Position numbers and translations under genes: made by a program. Positions 27,101 through 36,902 of a stretch of 64,000 nucleotides of DNA are shown piece after piece (position 1 is the first letter of the stretch; every line of letters begins with the position of its first letter). The DNA lies in assembly GCA_045837725.1 (NCBI GenBank), contig JBEWZL010000215.1, positions 1-64,000 on the forward strand. The letters are read 5' to 3'. The stretch comes from Vermamoeba vermiformis (Eukaryota). A model generated the notes under the pieces. The model was not told the origin of the DNA and made no database searches. It was given only the letters and a program-made list of their open reading frames with translations.

Positions 27101-29095
27101 GGCGGGAGTGGTGCGGCCAAAACCTTCGATGATGACGCAACTAACCACAAGGTCAGAACAGTTAACAAGTAAATATCAGCCTACATACCCGTTGGAACCA
27201 CCAAAACCGAATGAAGAAACAGCCATCAATTTGCCAGCAGAATCGAACTTTTCGACTTCAGTTTGCACGCGAAGTTTCTAAAAAAGGAAATTAGATTCAC
27301 ATCTTGATTTTGGTTCCTTTATGTGCTTACGTGTTGGTCCCATTTAATGTCGGGATTAGGGGTCTCAAAGTTAATATTGGGCACCAAGCAACCTTTGTCG
27401 AGCATCAAGGTGGCTTTGATCAAACCAGCCATGAAACTGGCGCACTCCAAGTGACCTACGTTTGACTTGACAGAACCCACGCGCAAGATATCGGATCTTT
27501 CACCTCCAAAGACCTCTCCGATAGAGTTAGCCTCGATAGGGTCTCCAACTTTAGTTCCTGTAGCGTGAGCCTCGACATAGTAAACAGATCGAGGGTTGAC
27601 TCCGGCAGTTTGTGCTGCTCTTTTGAAAGCCTCTTGTTGAGCATCTACAGCAATATAATTAATGACCGCTTGCAAAGTAGGCCTAATAGTCCGAAACTTA
27701 CCTCCGTTGGGCATAGTCAGTGAAGGGGATCGCTTTCCGTCAGAGTTGCAAGCTGATCCACGAACGACACAGTAAATGTGATCACCGTCTCGCAAAGCAG
27801 CCTCCAAGGGCTTGACAATAACGACACCGCAGCCTTCTGAGCGCACGTAGCCATCGGCACCTTTGTCGAAGGATCTGCAACGGCCGTTAGGTGAGAGAAC
27901 GCCGAGCTTGCTGAACTCAATCATCACAGTAGGATCAAGAATCATATTGACACCTGCGTAAGAGCCATCAGCAAACATAGTAAAGATATTCCGCGGGAAA
28001 ATTCGATCGAATCGGGAAATTAAAACTGGAAGGCGGATCTTCGGGGGAAATTGAATACATACCACCGACTAGGGCCTGGTCACAATCGCCGTCACGAATA
28101 GCCTTGCATGCTTCATGGAATGCAGTCACTGAGGATGAGCAAGCAGTATCAATGCTCATTGAGGGACCTTGGAGATTGAACACGAAGCTGATTCTGTTGG
28201 CGTTGATTGAGAGCGTGCAGCCAGTGATAGAGTATGATGTAATGGTGTCTCGGTCATGCGCAGCAACACCGTACTGTTCTTCCATGCCTACACCAACGAA
28301 AACTCCCGTGCGCGATCCGTTGTATTTAATTCCCGAATCCTCCAATGCCGCTAAAGAAACCTTTATTTGAGGTTAATAATGAATTCACATTCAATATATA
28401 ATATGCACGTACCTCTAAAAGCATTTTCTGTTGAGGATCCATGCACTCTGCTTCACGTTTTGAGATGCCGAAGGCTTCGTTATCAAACTCGAAGATTCTA
28501 TCGACAAAACCGCAATAAGATGTGAGTGCTTTCGATGGACGCTCCTTGTCTGCAAGAAAGTAGGTAAGTAAGAGCTAAAATGATTTAACCGCCACAGATC
28601 GGTTTCTCTAATTACTAAAAAAAATTGTATTTTCGCAAGTATTAATTTTGTGCACTAGGGCGTTCGGTTAAATTGATGTTCTATTAGATCCTTAAGTTTG
28701 AGACCAGTCTCACTTTCAGACCCTTAAAATGTCGGATCGGATTGTGAACCGAAAAACAATTGAAAAATATCTTTATCAAATACAAAATATGTGACGCGTA
28801 AAACGCATTATAAGTATCACATTTAATGCATTGATCGTTGAAACGAAAGTTATGCGTCTGGATCGGATACCGCGGATCAGATTTGTATTTCCGTTTCTTA
28901 ATTTGTTCGAAAGGCTGATATTGTTGAAAAAAAGTTAAACGTACCTTTAGATGAATAGTAGCGAGCATTCCAACGATCCATCTTGGCCTCTGAAATGCAA
29001 TCCTTTCGGTTGACCAAGTTGTTCCAGAACTCGGCCGGGGAGTTACCGGAGCCTGGAAATCGATTGGCAACACCAATAATAGCTAAAGGCTGCAT
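21117..29095 (-). CDS. Highly reducing iterative type I polyketide synthase KS-AT-DH-MT-ER-KR-ACP, no thioesterase; multi-exon
   Basis: KS DTACSSS / EAHATGT / NVGHLE; AT GHSFG and AYH; DH HVVQDAIVFPGAGY and HPAVLD; MT ILEVGAGTG; ER LIHSGAGGIG; KR GGLGAVG and YAAGN; ACP LGLDSL. Confidence 0.95.
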
Positions 29096-30065
29096 TTTAA
29101 TCAGTGTTTGGCCTTGTTAAGTTATAATAAGCAAGTGGCCAGCAGCAAACATTTTTAGGCGTTTTGGATCAATTTTTGACTGCCAAAATCGATAAATTGA
29201 CGACCAAACTTCAACTATTCGGCTCTGGTTTCCGCGTGATTCTTCGGATACGTGTCTGTGATTCGCTGCGACGTTGGTAGCTGTGGAATTTCAATTGTAC
29301 AACGGGTGCTCTCGTATTATCTTGTACCCCTGTTGAAAATTGTTGACCGAGTAATGACTGAGTACCACGTTGATTATCACTGTCAATTATTGTTGATTGA
29401 ATTGCCAACAGCCTCTTTTGCTTGCAGGGTGAGAATGAGGTGATCTCGTTGATCCAGATTGCAAAACTTTCTAACCGTTGCGTTGGTCATCGTGTTTGCT
29501 TGTTATAGGTATGCGTTGATTTGCTAAAAATTATATACAAAAGGCTGCTTATAAGTGAAATTTTTGATCCCAGGGTGCCATCATTAGTTCGGTTTTCAAA
29601 ATAACCAAAAAATCGGTATTTAATCCAACAATATCAAAAAATATTGTAAAATGAATTTCTAACAAAGGACAGACTTGAAATAAAAAAAAAGCATATTGGT
29701 TGAAATAAAATCCCAACTCCGCCAACTTCAAATTACCGCGTCTTTCGATTAACCTCGCAGCCTTCTACTGATATATTTCCGATACAGCGACTGGGGCGCC
29801 GCCTAGTAAGCTGAAAAAATGAGGTAGCGCTAACACCGCATCACCGATGCCGACATTTTCTGCAACTTGCTTTCGTGACTATGATTCTCAGTATAACAGG
29901 TGAGATGTGTATGAACGTAATGTAAATACAAGATAACAAGAGGAGGAAAGCTACGCTGCCCAGCGCTAGCGGATGGGAACTTGGAAGGCCCCGTACACAC
30001 ATTGACAGATCTGACATTTGGTTGAACAAGAATACGCTTTGATTTAATACTGAGACAACATGTGC

Positions 30066-31503
30066 CTACTGGCTATTTGGTCTCTGGAGGTACAATCCGA
30101 AATCACGCGTCGTTGCGACAGTCGGACCTTCGTTGTCGTAAAGGCCACGTGTGATCCATCGCTTGTCAAATTTGTTTTGGATGATTGTAGCCAAAGGCGT
30201 CTAAGAAAGAAACATATCGTAAGTCAATGCTTCAGTGAGCAGTATATCACGTACTGTGCGCCAATAAGACACCACTTGTTTTGGGTGGGAGGTTACTTTG
30301 CAGAATCCTTTGCCGGCTAGTTTGATTCTCAGATCATGCTCGAGCCTTTCCTTGAAGCCTAGCATTCAAAAGTTAGCCGCACATCGTAGAGGTCAACTGC
30401 AGTAAGCAAAAATAGCAAGTACAGTTACGCTAACGTACCAGGAAACCACGTGTTGCCGCCAGCAAGAACTACGTTAGCTAAAGTGCCGAACGCCACTTTC
30501 GGATCGGCATCACTGGCAAGTACTGTGTCGTAGATCTCATCGATTAAAGGTTTGCGCTCCGTATCGTTGGTGAGGGCTGGATTGAATATGGTTTCAGGGG
30601 CCAAAAATAGCTCTTTGGTCAGTTTAATTGGTTGTTCGTCAATAGTGTACGATGGTAACTCGCTGTCTTCTTTGAGCAACAGTTCGTTTGGATTTAGCGC
30701 GACGTAACACTGGTTCTCTTTGATATATCTGCGAGGAATCGATAAATCACTTGTCCCTAGGTACGAGTCATTGGTTAAATACCTAATGATATCCTTCTTA
30801 ACATTAGCGTCACTTGAAAGCGCGGTAACTCTGTTAGATAGCCAGCCGTTCACATTAGCACCGCCGTACAGAATGTCTTTCACAGCTACAATACGGCAGT
30901 TCCTGATGACCACAATCTATTTGGAAGTTATGAGAATTTCGCGCTTGAAGTCGACAGTACCCGTACCTGTGTTAAATCATCGCCAGATTCAATGATAACG
31001 CCAAAGTTATTGAACAGTCCTGCTTTGTACAACGCGACTTCTGCGGTGGTCATCAACAACAACGCCGGGATAGTGAACGTTTCAAATAAGATCTGCACGA
31101 GTTTTTCTACTTCACTAGCGGGAGCTCCAGCTCGTATTAGCATTATAAGCTAATAAAATGATTGGCGTTACGCATTACGTTCAACAAAAGACAAAACTTA
31201 CACCATTTTCTTCTGGGGCTACGCGGAGCTGGTTGTAAAGAGTATCGTGCAATACTTTCTAAATAATGCACCATCAATATTTAGTCGTGAGCGTTAAAGC
31301 GTTCGGATTTGCCAATCGAATTTTTAAAAATTTACCTCCCAGTCATCCCAATTTACAACTCGACCTCCAACCACGGGGTATCTGTGTTAAGTATTATTTT
31401 AATTAATTATTGAGCGAATAAATACTTACTTTATAGTCAAAATGCCTGCTTTCGGATGCGTGTAACCTTTAAGCACGGCAGCGGGTGCGGTATAATGCTC
31501 CAT
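30066..31503 (-). CDS. Divergent actin-like protein lacking actin residues ~1-57; multi-exon
   Basis: Spliced product begins [57 protein letters not shown]. It continues through LFETFTIPA, IESGDDLT, IKENQCYVAL, FLAPETIFNP, NVVLAGGNTWFPG, VVSYW and WITRGLYDNEGPTV, all collinear with actin ~58-375. An in-frame stop lies upstream of the ATG. Confidence 0.88.
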
Positions 31504-31701
31504 TGCTTGATTATACTTGTAACTGATTTTTCTTTGGCGAAAGAGCCTCTTGTTGTCTTGTAAGGCCAATACAAACTCGAAAATAGAGGAAATTCAAAGT
31601 CCAACCGCGAATTCTATTTTTGGTTCAGCTAAAGTCGGTATCAAAACGAGCAAAAAGGTTTATTGTTGACCACTTTTATCACAGAAAACACATATTTTAT
31701 C

Positions 31702-34700
31702 ATGTTGGCAGCTTTTGGCTATGTCATGCCGTTATTGCACGGCCCCACGTTGAACTTTTGCGCAGATGAGGAAGCAAACAACAAAATTAAATTATCAAAA
31801 ATGGTGGTGGAGTCGAAAATTAGGTAAGTTACTTGAATATTATTATAGCGTGACTGATCACAAAATTCAGCAAACTATTCGCCAAAACGACTATTTTCTT
31901 AACGTTCAAAAGCGAGCTAGAATTTGACGTTGAAGGAAATCTAGAATTTCCCTTGCCCGACGGTGCAGTGATTAATGGCTACGGGTAAGCTCGATAAATT
32001 TCTACAAAAGTCAAATATTAAATATTTCTGAAGACTGGATGTTGATGGTGTTATTGCCGACGCCTCTTTAGTTCCAAAAACCAAGGCCGAAGCAGTATTC
32101 GAAGAAGGTACTGTACTTCGCATTGTTACATTTCTAGGTGCTAATGATTGTACAGAAAAACGTAAAGGTGTTGATCCCGGATTGGTTCAGCAAGTTAAAG
32201 GCAACATGTTTCAAACACGCGTATATCCTATTCGAGCACATGGCACTCGCACTGTCAAAATTGTTTACACCTCCGAGCTAGCGACGGGCAAAGATAACTC
32301 GGCGATCTATGCCCATCCCGTGCCGTTGGAGTACAACATCGACTTCGAGGCCAGGTGTGGAAGTGGTCTCCAACACAGACGACGCGCCGATCTTCGCGAA
32401 CGAAGGCTTCGGTCCTGTGCAATTCACTCGAACTGGCGGAAGTTTTGTGTGCAAGATTGAGCGACACGATTGGTCCATTCCCGATGCCTCGATCGCCGTG
32501 GTGTTGCCCTCACAAAAAGCAACGGAGTTGTACATTGAGAGCGCAGAGGAGCGGCAGTACTTTGCCATTAGTGACGACTTGCCCAAGTGCGACGAGCCTC
32601 GTAAGTTGGTCGGTGGTACTGAAGTTCCAAAACTAATCGTTTGATTCCTTCAGGCAAAGTTCCCATCAATGTCGCCATTCTGTGGGATTGCTCTGGCAGC
32701 AGAGCGACTGAAGTAAGTTGTGGCGATTGAGAGTGAATTTGACTGTGCTAATGTTACGCTTCAGGCCAAAGAGATCGAGCTCGTCGAGAAGTTCGTCGAG
32801 TCCTGTGGCGACAACCTGTCGATTGACTTGTACAACTTCAGTACCTTTGTCGAACCGAAGAAGTCGTTCACCAAACAGAACATGAATGAGTTAATCAGCA
32901 CTCTAAAGAAAACGGTTTATGACGGGGCCACACGTTTCGATACTTTGCGCTCAACAATAGCCACGAACAACTATGATTGCTTCTTGCTCTTCAGCGACGG
33001 CATCACCTCTCTCGGGGATAATTGTGCACCGCTAGACGAATCTGCTGTTGGCACAACCAGCCCTATTTATGCATTTGGTGCCAGCACGGGTGCATGCGAT
33101 CACAATTTCTTGCGCTTGTGGGCTTATCAAACTGGCGGAGTTTATTTCAACTTGCAGTCCAAGAGCACGGACATCGGCGACGTCGTCAAGTCAATTGGCA
33201 AGCCTGTGCTCCGATTGGTCAGTGTTCGGGGCACGAGCGACAACGATGTCGAGCAAGTGTATCCTCCTGCTCTAACTCCTGTGGCATCGACCAACAATCA
33301 TTACGTCGTTGTTGGACAGTTGCGCGCCAAAGAGACAGAAGTTACTGTGAATTACGGCTTCGGACTGAACGATGTACGCGTCACAAAGAAGTACAAACTG
33401 AACGGCAATGTGACTAACACTGGTAAGATTACGGTTCTTTAAAAAAGGCGACTAATCTCCTTAGGTCTTATCTCTACTTTGTGGGCTCAATACAAGTTGC
33501 ACTCTTTGCAGTTCTTGCCCGAAAAGAACAAAGATGAGATTTTAGCATTGGGCCAAAAATTCAACTTTGTGACCTCAGAAACCAGCTTACTAGTGCTTGA
33601 GACCGTCGAACAGCATGCAGAGCACATGATCGAGCCCGCCAAGTCACGCAAAGAAATGTACGAGGCGTACCACAAGCTGAAAGAAGATTTCGAGCGAAGA
33701 TTGGAGAACTGGGAGACTGAGAAGGTAGCTCTCGTTGAGCAAATGTGGGAGGGCAGGTAAGTCAGCGCATGAATCAATATGCACGAACTAACGCGTGCCT
33801 TGCAGAGTGGCTTGGTGGGAAACAGGCGCAACACCACAACAACAAGGTCTCGAATACCCAAGCTTCTCTTATCCTGTCTTTGGTCCTTCCCCACTTGCTA
33901 ATGGCGCGAACGTTCCCACTGACAATAACATGATTGTGATTGAAATCGGCTCTGGGCTCACTAAGGCCGGATTTTTAGGCGAAACCAAGCCTCGAGCGAT
34001 AGTTCCAACCATGATCGGCAGACCTCGTCACACCGGTGTCATGGTCGGCATGGGTCAAAAGGACAGCTATGCCGGTGAAAGCCTTGATACTGGTGGCGAC
34101 GCAGAGAACGAGGAATCGGCTTCGGTTCAAGCGTCAGTGGTGCTTCAGCCTTGGAGCCCCAACACACCCTACACTGAAGCGATCAAAAAGGCACCCAAAC
34201 CCCAACAATACGAGGTGTATCTCACCCAGAAGGCACAGTACGGCAGTTCACCTGCATTCTACTTTGACTGCGCCAGTCACTTCTTTTACGACGGCCGACG
34301 AGACACTGCCATAAGAGTTCTCGGCAACATTTGCGAACTCAAAGTTGAACAAGCACAAATGTTACGCATCATGGCCTACAAGTTCTCTGAGATGGGTGAA
34401 ATCGATCTGGCTATCGAAGTGTTCCGCAAGGTGTTAACGCTGAAGCCATTTGAACCTCAGTCTTACAGGTATGACCGTAGCGAGGGCACATTGATCGGTA
34501 CTAATCAAGGAGCAGAGACTTGGCATTGGAACTGGCTCGCAAAGAAGAGTTCCAAGAAGCAATTGATTTGATGTTCAAAGTCATTGTTGGCTACTGGCCC
34601 GCTGCCTTCCAAGAGATCGAAATCACCGCGCTGTTCGAACTCAACAACATGATTGCCAAGGCTGATCGCAAGGGCTTTAAATACGTCTTGCCTAAATTGC

Positions 34701-35196
34701 TGACACCCAAGCTCGTCAAAAACTTGGACGTTGATTTGCGCATTTCAATGGCTTGGTAAGGACCGATGGTAATTGCGAGCGTTGATCTAACGCGAATGTG
34801 CTGCAGGGACACTGACAACACCGATCAAGATTTGCACGTAAAAGAGCCCGGAGGTACCGTGTGCAGCTACTACAACCGATTCCCTGCCTCAGGTGCGATG
34901 ATGTCACGCGACTTCAGACAAGGTTACGGACCCGAAGAGTAAGCACAGGCTCAGGTAGTACTCATGCAACATAGCACTAACGAGTTCGCGTTAGGTACAT
35001 GATTCGCAAGGCTAAAAAAGGTGTCTACGAGGCTACGACTAATTACTACGGTGGCGGTGGCATGTGCGGTCCGACAACGATCATTCTTTATTTCTTCACC
35101 AACTACGGTCGCGAGAATGAGCGAATGACAGTGACTACCACACGCTTGGCAGATAACCGCTCGACAAACATTATTGGCAGCATAACGATCACTTAA
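31702..35196 (+). CDS. VIT + vWA-like + TPR + DUF2135 protein with an embedded actin N-terminal segment; apparent 1-nt frameshift at ~32354
   Basis: VIT ([25 protein letters not shown]); vWA-like ([21 protein letters not shown]); LWAQYKL...[44 protein letters not shown] region; [19 protein letters not shown]...[12 protein letters not shown]...NYYGG C-terminal DUF2135-type domain. Confidence 0.85.
33921..34079 (+). other. Actin residues ~5-57 (phosphate-1 loop + D-loop) inserted in frame in the VIT/DUF2135 gene
   Basis: [53 protein letters not shown] aligns without gaps to actin [53 protein letters not shown] (actin sequence recalled from memory). Confidence 0.95.
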
Positions 35197-35227: not shown

Positions 35228-36527
35228 TTATTTATCTTCGATTGGTCTTCCATAGTCGTCGAACAGGTTGCATTTTAGCTTCCAGAACGGCTTCTTAATC
35301 CGCTCAAACAGCTGCTTGAATTCAGACGAGCGTTTCCTGTGATTTAATACCACAGGCAGTTCTTTTTCAGTGGCGGGGCCAATTGTAAAGGACAGTTCAC
35401 GAGGTCCGTCCATACCTTCAAAGTGCACGTATTGCAGATTGGCAGGCAGATTTTGCATGAGTAGTTGAATGGCTTTTGGATCCATAGTCATACCTAGTCA
35501 AATCGTTAGTTGCTTTGTTTTACCTTCTGAGCGGTCAGAAAAACTTACCTTTGTGCGTGTAGTTCTTAATCTTCTCGAGGATGCGCAGGATCTTGTCGTT
35601 ATCAACTTTATACAACTGATGAAAAGTGAATGATTCGAGCGATCTTCGGTCCAGTATTGCGTCGAGAAGTTGGGGCGTCAAATCGTAAAATCCGAGTTCC
35701 AAGATCGTGAGCTGTTTCAATGAGGCAAGAACTTGGCTCAACAGCTGTGAATTGATGTTGGAATTGTTCACTAATCGCAGCTCTTGCAATTCAGTCATAT
35801 TTTTAATGCACTCCAGTGCTTGTGGTGTAATTTTGCGGCACTGTCGCAATGACAAGATCTCGAGATTCTTCAACAGCGACAGAGACGAGTTGTCGAGCAG
35901 CACTTGACAGCTGTCAATGCGAAGCTCGCGCAAGGTTGGGCCATAGAAATTGCAAATCTTGGCCACAACGCGGTCATTGATCGCAGTGTGCGACAGATTC
36001 AGTCGACGGATGCGCGGCAGTTGATCCAACGCGTGGACCATTTCAGAGCTGTTGACTTTAGTGCCTGCCAAATTGAGTTCAGTGAGACCCGGCACTGCGG
36101 ATAGTGCATCGATAATAGTGGCTGTTGGGATTAGTTCGCAGTTGGACAGATCCACTCGCTTCAAGCCACCAAACCGTTTAGCGAGTGAATAGAGCATTTG
36201 ACCGTCGAATTTTTCTTTGGCAAACATGCGCCAGTTGAATGACGTAATGATGCTCCAGTACGTGGCGTTCCATCCGCGGCAAACCGTTCGCACTCTGAAC
36301 GATTTATTAATTATTCAAGCGTCTAAAAATTTCAGTATTTAAATGCTATTATTGTTGCTTGTAACTTACGACATTAAATCAATATTATCAAATTGGTCGA
36401 ACAAAATATACACTATGTCAACGGGCAAATCCAAAAAATCAATCGTGCCCTCGTTCATTCCATAAAAGGAGCCGATCTCATATTCGGTGGTCTCTTCCAC
36501 CTCCGTTTGCTCAATTTTCTCGTCCAT
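35228..36527 (-). CDS. F-box/leucine-rich repeat protein
   Basis: FLDLPVDIVYILF...VRTVCRGW F-box followed by LxxLxLxxC-type LRRs. Confidence 0.88.
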
Positions 36528-36902
36528 TATTAAGCAATTGTGGTGGACAGACAGGGGACTTAAAAAATTAAACGTTGTTGTGGAAATTTGTGAAACTATC
36601 TTCGCAAAACAACCAGAAGGCAGAAAAATCTAAGATGCACGATAGATTATGCTAATGTTCGTGCAAATACACGTGAATCAATTCAGCAAATGACTCGGAG
36701 TCAGGATGTCAAACTTTTAATTCCAGTCCATCAAAATTTGCCTTGGTATTATTGCCTTGGAAGGTACAAATCTAAACTAAATACAAATACTAATTATATT
36801 GATTTTTCTATGGCATGTCAACCTTTTTAGAACAACCAAATAATTATTTGGTTTACGGAACCCTTGTGTAATTTCGCTTTCATACCCGATTAATAAGCAA
36901 AC

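Follow-up and report, generated by a model that had tools for sequence, protein, structure and literature searches.

A candidate split actin in Vermamoeba vermiformis: complementary pieces of one actin fold in two head-to-head genes

Few protein folds are as conserved or as intensively studied as that of actin. Residues 1-57 of actin carry the P1 phosphate loop, three of the core strands in subdomain 1, and the D-loop, a segment that in F-actin lies in the cleft of the next subunit. Judged from the structure of actin, a protein that lacked these strands and the P1 loop would hardly be expected to be stable by itself; we know of no role for the P1-loop residues outside the actin fold. The closest described system is nicked actin, in which subtilisin, chymotrypsin or ECP32 cuts the chain at residues 42-48, leaving an N-terminal fragment of about 40-50 residues and a C-terminal core with no peptide bond between them in subdomain 2. 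An article on subtilisin-cleaved actin states that it retains several properties of intact actin, and its reference list names a "functional, chymotryptically split actin" (PMC2116201); a solved structure exists for ECP-cleaved actin (3ue5).

Protists also contain fusions in which a whole actin is joined to vWA, Sec23-trunk, NACHT or TPR modules; P0028, P0029, P0063 and P0065 combine VWA/Sec23_trunk with Actin, and P0046 and P0077 (the latter labelled Balamuthia mandrillaris) combine NACHT/TPR with Actin. Proteins with the domain order VIT-vWA-TPR-DUF2135 are mostly bacterial, with some eukaryotic members, and no open-access literature on DUF2135 was found. Incomplete folds that are completed by strands of another polypeptide are known from gene fission with fragment complementation and from the donor-strand complementation of chaperone-usher pili. 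No description of fragment complementation was found for the actin fold, and the open-access literature yielded no account of a natural actin encoded in two genes.

The locus discussed here lies in a 64,000-nt stretch of V. vermiformis DNA (contig JBEWZL010000215.1), referred to below as the window. The initial annotation had assigned complementary parts of one actin to two neighbouring genes, and tblastn, Pfam Actin and matches to solved actins together located both pieces at the positions it had given.

Two divergent genes and their actin pieces

The actin-like gene (30066-31503, minus strand) encodes a divergent actin that is truncated at the N-terminus. It has eight exons (31503-31430, 31381-31336, 31258-31202, 31149-30967, 30916-30783, 30728-30439, 30358-30255 and 30200-30066), assembled from their coordinates and then translated into 340 aa; a plain reading of the sequence misses one of the introns (30729-30782). 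Pfam Actin (PF00022) matches the minus-strand exons from profile position 103 onward, with 27.3 bits in exon 4 and 29 bits in exon 5 against a cut-off of 27. The protein (residues 18-330) is about 32% identical to conventional actins, and its homology begins at about residue 59-61 of actin; the full-length orthologue P0121 aligns to residues 59/60-371 of solved actins (E 1.6e-50). All 60 matches of P0121 shown from the PDB are named actin and none Arp; when exon 5 of the actin-like gene is taken alone, "HC1 actin" and Arp2 rank slightly above actin. In place of actin residues 1-57, orthologue comparison reveals a leader of 17 codons (31453-31503, minus strand), whose first 10 or so residues vary among species and whose remainder is conserved up to the ten-residue motif that follows. 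An in-frame stop at 31594-31596 lies upstream of the ATG and, together with a transcript free of any upstream exon (X5 record 9, below), bears out the earlier statement that no N-terminal actin sequence lies upstream.

The AlphaFold2 (AF2) model of P0121 alone has a mean pLDDT of 80.6, falling below 50 over residues 1-25, and a TM score of 0.80-0.81 to actin; AF2 is insensitive to missing strands, so this model argues neither for nor against a protein that works by itself.

The neighbouring gene (31702-35196, plus strand) encodes a VIT domain, a vWA-like region, a helical linker, a TPR region and DUF2135 in 10 exons (31702-31823, 31871-31984, 32034-32600, 32654-32712, 32765-33422, 33465-33756, 33806-34468, 34510-34755, 34807-34938 and 34995-35196), all with GT..AG boundaries. 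Pfam recognizes the VIT domain at the N-terminus (29.4 bits, cut-off 26.5) and DUF2135 at the C-terminus (30 bits, cut-off 22). The Pfam vWA profile has no match on exon 5, a region that can be aligned with family members around a WD.S.S motif; the gene as a whole aligns lengthwise with P0006, P0009, P0011-13 and P0017. An acidic linker and then a TPR-like helical region (34080-34755, plus strand) follow the actin piece, as indicated by the family alignment and weak TPR Pfam matches.

The initial annotation located this gene correctly and passed over a 1-nt frameshift, a surplus base at 32353-32356 (plus strand) that breaks the VIT reading frame and gives a CDS of 3055 nt. No plausible short intron accounts for it, and the explanation as an intron was therefore rejected. 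The surplus base is most likely a consensus error, because both X1 contigs omit one base, at 32353 or 32356, and the L001 orthologue runs through the region in a single reading frame.

The actin piece of the large gene occupies 33921-34079 (plus strand), in frame within exon 7 and without flanking introns, and corresponds to actin residues ~4-57 with the P1 loop, subdomain 1 strands and D-loop. The translated exon scores 35.1 bits with Pfam Actin (cut-off 27), over positions 4-45 of the 410 in the profile, and matches residues 5-58 of solved actins (E 2e-17), and tblastn with the conventional actin P0284 aligns actin 4-56 at 66% identity (E 1e-18). Across all 64 kb the same tblastn query matched only this segment and the minus-strand gene. 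The AF2 model of exon 7 has pLDDT <50 for the insert and both linkers, and 80-92 at residues about 121-170.

As the initial annotation had claimed, the pieces abut with essentially no overlap: the N-terminal piece reaches actin 5-58 and the C-terminal part starts at 59/60, so that they meet within about 2 residues. By our own rough estimate, breakpoints placed uniformly would abut in this manner about 1% of the time. No single polypeptide holds the complete fold, since phosphate-1 lies in the VIT product and phosphate-2 and the adenosine motif, both kept, lie in the actin-like product. As expected of a split gene, the fragments are complementary and nonoverlapping, and each is expressed (X5 transcripts) and conserved. 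The two start codons are separated by 198 nt (31504-31701), presumably a shared promoter region, and by 150 nt in L001; from this spacing we infer a bidirectional promoter common to both genes. Two simple routes to the arrangement were considered and rejected: if one inversion brought the actin halves together again, it would part VIT-vWA from TPR-DUF2135, which are one protein family-wide, and exon shuffling with retained intron borders does not agree with an insert that has no flanking introns.

The pieces are unequally diverged, with 65% identity to conventional actin in the N-terminal piece and 32% in the C-terminal part. Neither value (0.65 and 0.32 to the reference) reaches the conventional level, if the 108 of 147 panel proteins with at least 0.70 identity in the C-terminal region are taken as conventional actins. 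Catalytic residues are also changed, and glutamate replaces the aspartate of both phosphate loops. The C-terminal part has Q161 for H and E154 for D, the latter change being shared by 10 of 164 panel proteins; the N-terminal piece has E11 for D, found in 5/6 inserts and in 0/164 panel proteins, of which 163 have aspartate. Because of these substitutions, the ATPase activity of a completed split actin would be uncertain.

Within the insert, the P-loop half is 0.55 identical to actin, as are 39 orphan actins on average (mean 0.55). For the D-loop half, identity to conventional actin is 0.85-0.90 in each of the five inserts tested; in the same 39 orphans it averages 0.25 and does not exceed 0.50. 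By sequence comparison the insert is a mosaic, with a P-loop half diverged like that of orphan actins and a D-loop half that is 85-90% conventional. The divergence of the former fits co-divergence with the C-terminal part, and the near-conventional state of the latter is better explained by a separate function or by gene conversion than by simple complementation. Mere capture of a conventional actin exon is weakened as an origin of the N-terminal piece by the orphan-like P-loop half and by E11, absent from the panel.

The core of the D-loop is encoded by a 42-nt tract (34023-34064, plus strand) that matches conventional actin of this organism, as gene or mRNA, in 41 of 42 nt. Thousands of reads from X21 and X23, and one high-depth X1 contig, align here and are confined to the tract; their sole mismatch is at 34049, and their loose ends continue as conventional actin.

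Expression, assembly and age of the pair

One spliced X5 contig of 1050 nt (record 9), the only transcript found for the actin-like gene, has joints at the positions of all seven of its introns; it is collinear with the genome to about 31542 and contains no N-terminal actin exon upstream. In the large gene, X5 contigs show the joints 32600/32654, 32712/32765 and 34465/34513; the last of these is in record 12, which is contiguous over 33849-34465 and therefore retains the insert, so that the segment is not spliced out. Thirteen of the 16 X5 substitutions listed for exon 7 fall at third codon positions, by our own arithmetic. Expression of the pair is documented by contigs of one run (X5) and by transcript-derived orthologues. 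X21 and X23, RNA runs labelled as the same species and of about 13 million reads each, contain 0 reads from either gene, which may reflect silence or strain divergence.

Misassembly, which the initial annotation had named as a possible objection, is contradicted by X1 records 2 and 7, two independent contigs that span the junctions; nor is the pair a one-off, given its orthologues and the collinear head-to-head layout in a relative's contig, L001. Of the four refuting outcomes listed in the initial annotation, the three that were checked (a normal N-terminus from a transcript, an insert that is spliced out, a one-off or misassembled pair) did not occur. The relatives have the same breakpoint. 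The truncated start is shared by all four orthologues with a known N-terminus (the window, P0121, L001 and P0342, a EukProt transcriptome sequence), and the insert is present in 5/5 exon-7 orthologues (P0222-P0226), which are 70-98% identical. The L001 contig ends about 115 nt before the expected start of the insert. P0122, P0126 and P0223, which come from a further relative, each have one Logan contig of 8,247 nt as their recorded source. No insert-bearing VIT protein was found in the EukProt transcriptome that holds P0342. A metagenome scan with P0121 gave no match, and the same kind of scan with an alignment as query found L001 and L002.

Over 336 codons of the actin-like gene, the window and L001 differ with a dN of 0.217 and synonymous sites are saturated. 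Judged from these comparisons, both the truncation and the insertion are old: the former because 4/4 orthologues share the start and synonymous sites are saturated at this dN, the latter because 5/5 exon-7 orthologues carry the insert, and no other part of the exon is conserved as well (pairwise identity averages 0.83 in the insert, 0.56 and 0.60 in the two linkers, and 0.78 on the TPR side). Constraint extends over the whole insert, D-loop and nucleotide loops alike, GSG and KAGF being invariant in 6/6 sequences.

What the pair may do

We propose, with a probability of about 0.55, that the locus encodes a naturally split actin-fold protein, in which two chains would complete one fold by trans-complementation. 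The complementary breakpoints, the presence of both mRNAs in one run, the conservation of the pieces and their conserved head-to-head linkage all argue for this proposal, which is further supported by the fact that nicked actin remains functional and by the prediction that the insert alone is unstructured between low-confidence linkers. The small gene would produce an orphan actin without residues 1-57, and the neighbouring VIT-vWA-TPR-DUF2135 protein would carry the missing segment between a pair of flexible linkers, from where the segment would insert into the truncated protein by strand complementation. The completed product would be a nucleotide-binding actin-like module, anchored noncovalently and stoichiometrically to the large scaffold, and divergent transcription from the 150-200 nt gap would help to match the dosage of both genes. 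Through its almost conventional D-loop half the module might offer ordinary actin a conventional pointed-end face, and thereby connect the scaffold with filaments or monomers. A stronger version holds that the two chains form an obligate, nucleotide-binding actin protomer whose D-loop, kept conventional by selection or gene conversion, docks on or caps ordinary filaments. We regard it as tentative and rather doubtful; if true, the VIT-vWA-TPR-DUF2135 scaffold would be wired to the cytoskeleton via a split actin fold.

Complementation alone is an insufficient explanation, since the D-loop half is far more conventional than its presumed partner. One could suppose instead that the two products have independent functions, the insert being a peptide module, chiefly a conventional D-loop, by which the VIT scaffold would contact conventional actin or proteins that bind the D-loop, and the truncated protein acting alone or with other partners. 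The five near-conventional D-loop halves, which have no counterpart among the 39 orphans, the 42-nt tract and the confident AF2 model of the truncated protein by itself would suit this explanation, to which the constraint on the P1-loop residues GSG and KAGF, the complementary breakpoints and linkage kept across relatives, and the poor stability expected of an actin deprived of its core strands and P1 loop are all opposed. We consider it unlikely. A related idea is that the insert is a regulatory mimic or decoy, engaging the machinery that folds or modifies actin or competing with the N-terminus of conventional actin, and that the fold of the neighbour is never completed. The likeness to conventional actin is indeed greatest in the surface-exposed D-loop, and the linker that holds the insert is variable and unstructured across the family. 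This idea leaves unexplained why the neighbouring gene lacks exactly the same segment in 4/4 orthologues and why the linkage is conserved, and E11 would be an odd choice for a mimic of proteins that have aspartate there; it appears improbable.

The remaining explanation, that an actin gene was broken up by local duplication or inversion, one or both pieces being nonfunctional remnants, or that the arrangement is an assembly artefact, could appeal to the frameshift in the window's VIT gene and to the silence of both genes in X21 and X23. It is already largely refuted and is given hardly any credence here, as the frameshift is missing from both X1 contigs and from L001, the 8 and 10 exons are intact, with GT..AG introns spliced in X5, several lineages conserve both genes (with the dN and saturated dS given above), the insert is better conserved than its flanks, and independent contigs span the junctions.

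Comparison with known systems

The proposed split actin resembles nicked actin in consisting of a small N-terminal fragment and a C-terminal core. In nicked actin the cut is made after the protein has folded as one chain, whereas the two parts here come from separate genes, the small one forms a segment within a protein of about 1000 aa, and the chain is interrupted near residue 57-59 instead of 42-48. Like orphan actin-like proteins and Arps, the C-terminal part is a divergent member of the actin family with the phosphate-2 and adenosine motifs and an actin-like predicted fold (TM 0.80-0.81), but in 164 of 164 panel members the N-terminal region belongs to the same chain, and the solved matches shown for its orthologue P0121 are named actin, not Arp.

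The whole-actin fusions of protists share the joining of an actin to vWA or TPR modules, and residues 249-566 of P0029 and 95-421 of P0065 align to the C-terminal part described here; these proteins carry a complete actin domain, whereas only about 53 residues are fused in the present case. The large gene has the domain order of VIT-vWA-TPR-DUF2135 proteins and aligns along their length, but in them a variable linker takes the place of the actin piece, and Pfam Actin is found in 0 of 14 DUF2135-bearing matches and in 0 of the 6 aligned family members. If both products assemble, they would provide a first functional handle on this uncharacterised family, and they would show a new means by which an actin-like module can be tethered to a scaffold. 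The near-conventional D-loop in an otherwise diverged module would furthermore offer a directly testable hypothesis on contact with ordinary actin.

As in fragment complementation and donor-strand complementation, an incomplete fold would be completed by strands of another polypeptide; the difference is that the strands would here be donated from within an unrelated scaffold protein. Assembly of the two products would bring natural fragment complementation to the actin fold, in the form of a ready-made split-actin design that could inform how actin subdomains 1 and 2 fold.

Two actin pieces in divergent genes

The window DNA is eukaryotic, with short introns (GT..AG, about 47-80 nt), and its GC content switches between about 37% and 50% along 2-kb bins, consistent with exons that are richer in GC than the AT-richer intergenic and intronic sequence around them. 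A tblastn search of all 64 kb with the conventional actin P0284 found actin-like coding sequence at two places only: a plus-strand insert at 33921-34079 (actin 4-56, 66% identity, E 1e-18) and a multi-exon minus-strand gene matched over about 30437-31383. Because just these two places are found, the coordinates that the initial annotation gave for both actin pieces are exact.

Both gene models were assembled by coordinates from the window sequence. The small gene runs from 31503 to 30066 on the minus strand and encodes 340 aa, of which residues 18-330 share about 32% identity with many actins; the ORF listing places an in-frame stop upstream of its ATG. The alignment of its full-length orthologue P0121 with solved actins spans residues 59/60-371 (E 1.6e-50). 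The best solved matches of P0121 are conventional actins, and that of small-gene exon 5 is 'HC1 actin' (9wc4, E 3.8e-11), above Arp2 and actin. The large gene (31702 to 35196, plus strand) has 10 exons and carries the Pfam domains VIT (29.4 bits) and DUF2135 (30 bits). Exon 7 of this gene matches Pfam Actin (35.1 bits, profile positions 4-45) and aligns with residues 5-58 of solved actins (E 2e-17). The two actin pieces meet to within about two residues, and the start codons of their genes are just 198 nt apart. In the neighborhood, a putative ketoacyl-synthase / polyketide-synthase-type gene lies at 27319-29116 on the minus strand (long ORF pieces, by eye), and leucine-rich-repeat-like ORFs occupy 35228-36629 on the same strand, immediately 3' of the VIT gene and convergent with it.

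The VIT coding sequence of the window is 3055 nt long and out of frame as it stands, and no credible intron was found as the cause. The surplus base lies at 32353-32356, where two X1 DNA contigs each drop one base, 32353 or 32356; either deletion restores the frame, with a different residue. Since these contigs omit one base and the orthologue on the metagenome contig L001 reads through the site uninterrupted, the frameshift is most likely a consensus error or artefact at a heterozygous or variable site; the same in-frame sequences speak against a pseudogene lesion.

When exon 7 was searched against longer proteins, 14 matches carried DUF2135, and Pfam Actin is listed for none of the 14. An alignment of six of these with exons 6 and 7 reveals a common plan: VIT is followed by a vWA-like region, a helical block with WW..F at its end, a linker, a TPR-like region and DUF2135; the linker is very variable in length and sequence, and it is exactly inside it that the actin piece is found. 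No obvious signal peptide was seen by eye at the N-terminus of the window or L001 VIT protein, which makes a cytosolic location plausible.

Transcripts, assembly and relatives

The X5 contigs, labeled only as probable RNA, have introns exactly removed and therefore derive from RNA. Record 9, a 1050-nt contig on the small gene, has seven joints that are the introns of the model, including 30729-30782, and is collinear with the genome to about 31542, corresponding to a 39 nt 5' leader (hand summing of pieces). It contains no upstream exon and no unfitting part; thus, no transcript with a normal actin N-terminus was found. Record 12 runs without a break from 33849 to 34465 and is joined there to 34513; the VIT mRNA thus retains the actin insert instead of having it spliced out, and the joints 32600/32654 and 32712/32765 confirm two further VIT introns. 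At the DNA level, X1 record 2 (29966-32309) extends from the small gene across the gap into the 5' end of VIT, and record 7 (33635-35009) spans the insert and both flanks. These contigs were assembled independently and therefore support the gene layout, an independence that is weak only, as X1 may be the sample of origin. Together with the orthologues in relatives, they dispose of a misassembly or a one-off event. One placement of reads and contigs answered three of the four possible refutations that the initial annotation had named.

The raw RNA runs X21 and X23 (same species label, about 13 million reads each, placed at a 95% threshold) have no reads of their own on either gene, which counts against expression; the sole reads here, 3,502 and 9,498, fall on 34023-34064, and their loose ends read on as conventional actin. 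This may reflect silence of both genes under the conditions sampled, or a strain that has diverged too far for its reads to pass the 95% threshold. Expression of both genes rests on one run (X5) and on transcript-derived orthologues.

An exhaustive search with small-gene exon 5 gave 99 matches. The one full-length orthologue among them is P0121, whose 336 aa match the window protein from end to end with 76% identity; P0122, P0123, P0124 and P0126 are fragments, and the next best match has 36% identity only. A word-based search with P0121 returned three matches with E below 1e-40, namely, P0121 itself, P0342 (a complete transcriptome ORF of 345 aa, 78% identical to the window protein) and one 36% match. 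No close unsplit relative was found in either search. A metagenome scan provided L001 (4046 nt) and L002, identical to L001 over 2066 nt. The N-terminus is known for four orthologues (window, P0121, P0342, L001), and all four have the same start and the same short leader. L001 is collinear with the window through the small gene, a gap of 150 nt, and VIT up to the start of exon 7, where the contig ends just short of the expected position of the insert; its DNA identity to the window is about 66%. Among proteins of similar length, exon 7 found five orthologous fragments, P0222-P0226 (98, 74, 75, 70 and 78% identical), each with a Pfam Actin flag and with the insert present in the alignment. For P0122, P0126 and P0223, the recorded source is in each case a single Logan contig of 8,247 nt, read most simply as one contig that carries both genes. 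In P0223 the ORF is uninterrupted from the helical block into exon 7, the window intron 33757-33805 being absent there.

Selection and mosaic composition of the insert

Between the window and L001, the small-gene proteins are 71% identical over 336 aligned codons, with saturated synonymous sites (NG86 undefined) and a dN of 0.217, which can only be inflated by the few intron codons included at some HSP ends. Within exon 7, mean pairwise identity (98% pair excluded) is highest in the insert at 0.83, compared to 0.78 on the TPR side and 0.56 and 0.60 in the linkers, and 13 of the 16 X5 substitutions listed fall at third codon positions (hand arithmetic; some differences are unlisted). Taken together, dN, segment identities and third-position bias indicate that the small gene and the insert are both kept by purifying selection.

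Compared to one conventional actin, identity is 0.65 for the N-terminal piece and 0.32 for the C-terminal part; in the 30 full-length proteins of an actin-family panel with a C-region identity of 0.30-0.50, that of the N region ranges over 0.27-0.58. Dividing the insert in two accounts for its higher value. Positions 8-36 of the insert (P1 loop and strands) are 0.55 identical to conventional actin in the window and 0.48-0.59 in four orthologues; the mean of 39 divergent (orphan) actins is 0.55, equal to the window insert. Positions 37-56 (D-loop) are 0.85-0.90 identical in all five, the 39 orphan actins having a mean of 0.25 and a maximum of 0.50. In the D-loop core, 41 of 42 nt (34023-34064) are identical to the organism's conventional actin and the flanking 30 nt and 15 nt match it at only about 57-60% (hand count), which suggests gene conversion or very strong constraint. 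This conventional actin is highly expressed and multi-copy, and X1 contig depth is about 1738 on the tract versus about 368 for the locus. Glutamate replaces actin D11 in five of the six inserts and in 0/164 panel proteins; therefore, the insert is not simply a copy of conventional actin. The C-terminal part has E154 (10/164 in the panel) and Q161 (14/164). The X5 strain or allele carries a compact change at 34028-34034 (substitution, +1, -1), so that the D-loop His is followed by Gln in place of Thr. The residue at this position is T, M or Q among orthologues, and Gln is the commoner actin residue there.

Putative strand complementation and known systems

Predicted alone (31-row alignment), P0121 has a mean pLDDT of 80.6 and a pTM of 0.81, with its leader (residues 1-25) below 50, and the model matches actins with a TM of 0.80-0.81 over about 318 columns. 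For exon 7 by itself (6-row alignment), pLDDT is 80-92 at residues about 121-170 and below 50 in the insert and both linkers. These single-chain predictions fit an insert segment that would need a partner. In actin, residues 1-57 form an integral part of subdomains 1 and 2, and nucleotide binding depends on them. Strand complementation between the insert and the truncated protein is the best reading, a putative mechanism to which we assign a probability of roughly 0.55. The truncated protein would receive the P1 loop, three core strands and the D-loop from the segment carried by the scaffold, and the two chains would make up an actin-like module that flexible linkers attach to the VIT scaffold. 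Cleaved actins (PMC2116201; 3ue5) show that a break in subdomain 2 is tolerated by the fold. More speculatively, the conventional D-loop suggests contact with ordinary actin.

Beside strand complementation, the two pieces may have independent functions, or the embedded segment may act as a decoy; that the pieces are the debris of a rearrangement is essentially excluded. The two-gene actin arrangement itself is a solid observation, conserved and directly testable.

In the open-access literature searched, nothing was found on DUF2135 or on an actin fold whose coding sequence is divided between two genes. A whole actin domain is joined to vWA/Sec23-trunk or NACHT/TPR modules in protist and metagenome proteins (P0028, P0029, P0063, P0065; P0046, P0058, P0077); one whole-actin fusion protein is labeled Balamuthia mandrillaris, and P0059 (labeled Planoprotostelium fungivorum) combines an actin domain with small-GTPase, anoctamin and PP2C modules. 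Actin-scaffold fusions seem to be recurrent in amoebae, and the whole-actin fusions of protists, with their vWA or TPR/NACHT modules, are the nearest genomic precedent for the present case, in which an actin-family gene is split and complementation between its fragments is presumed.
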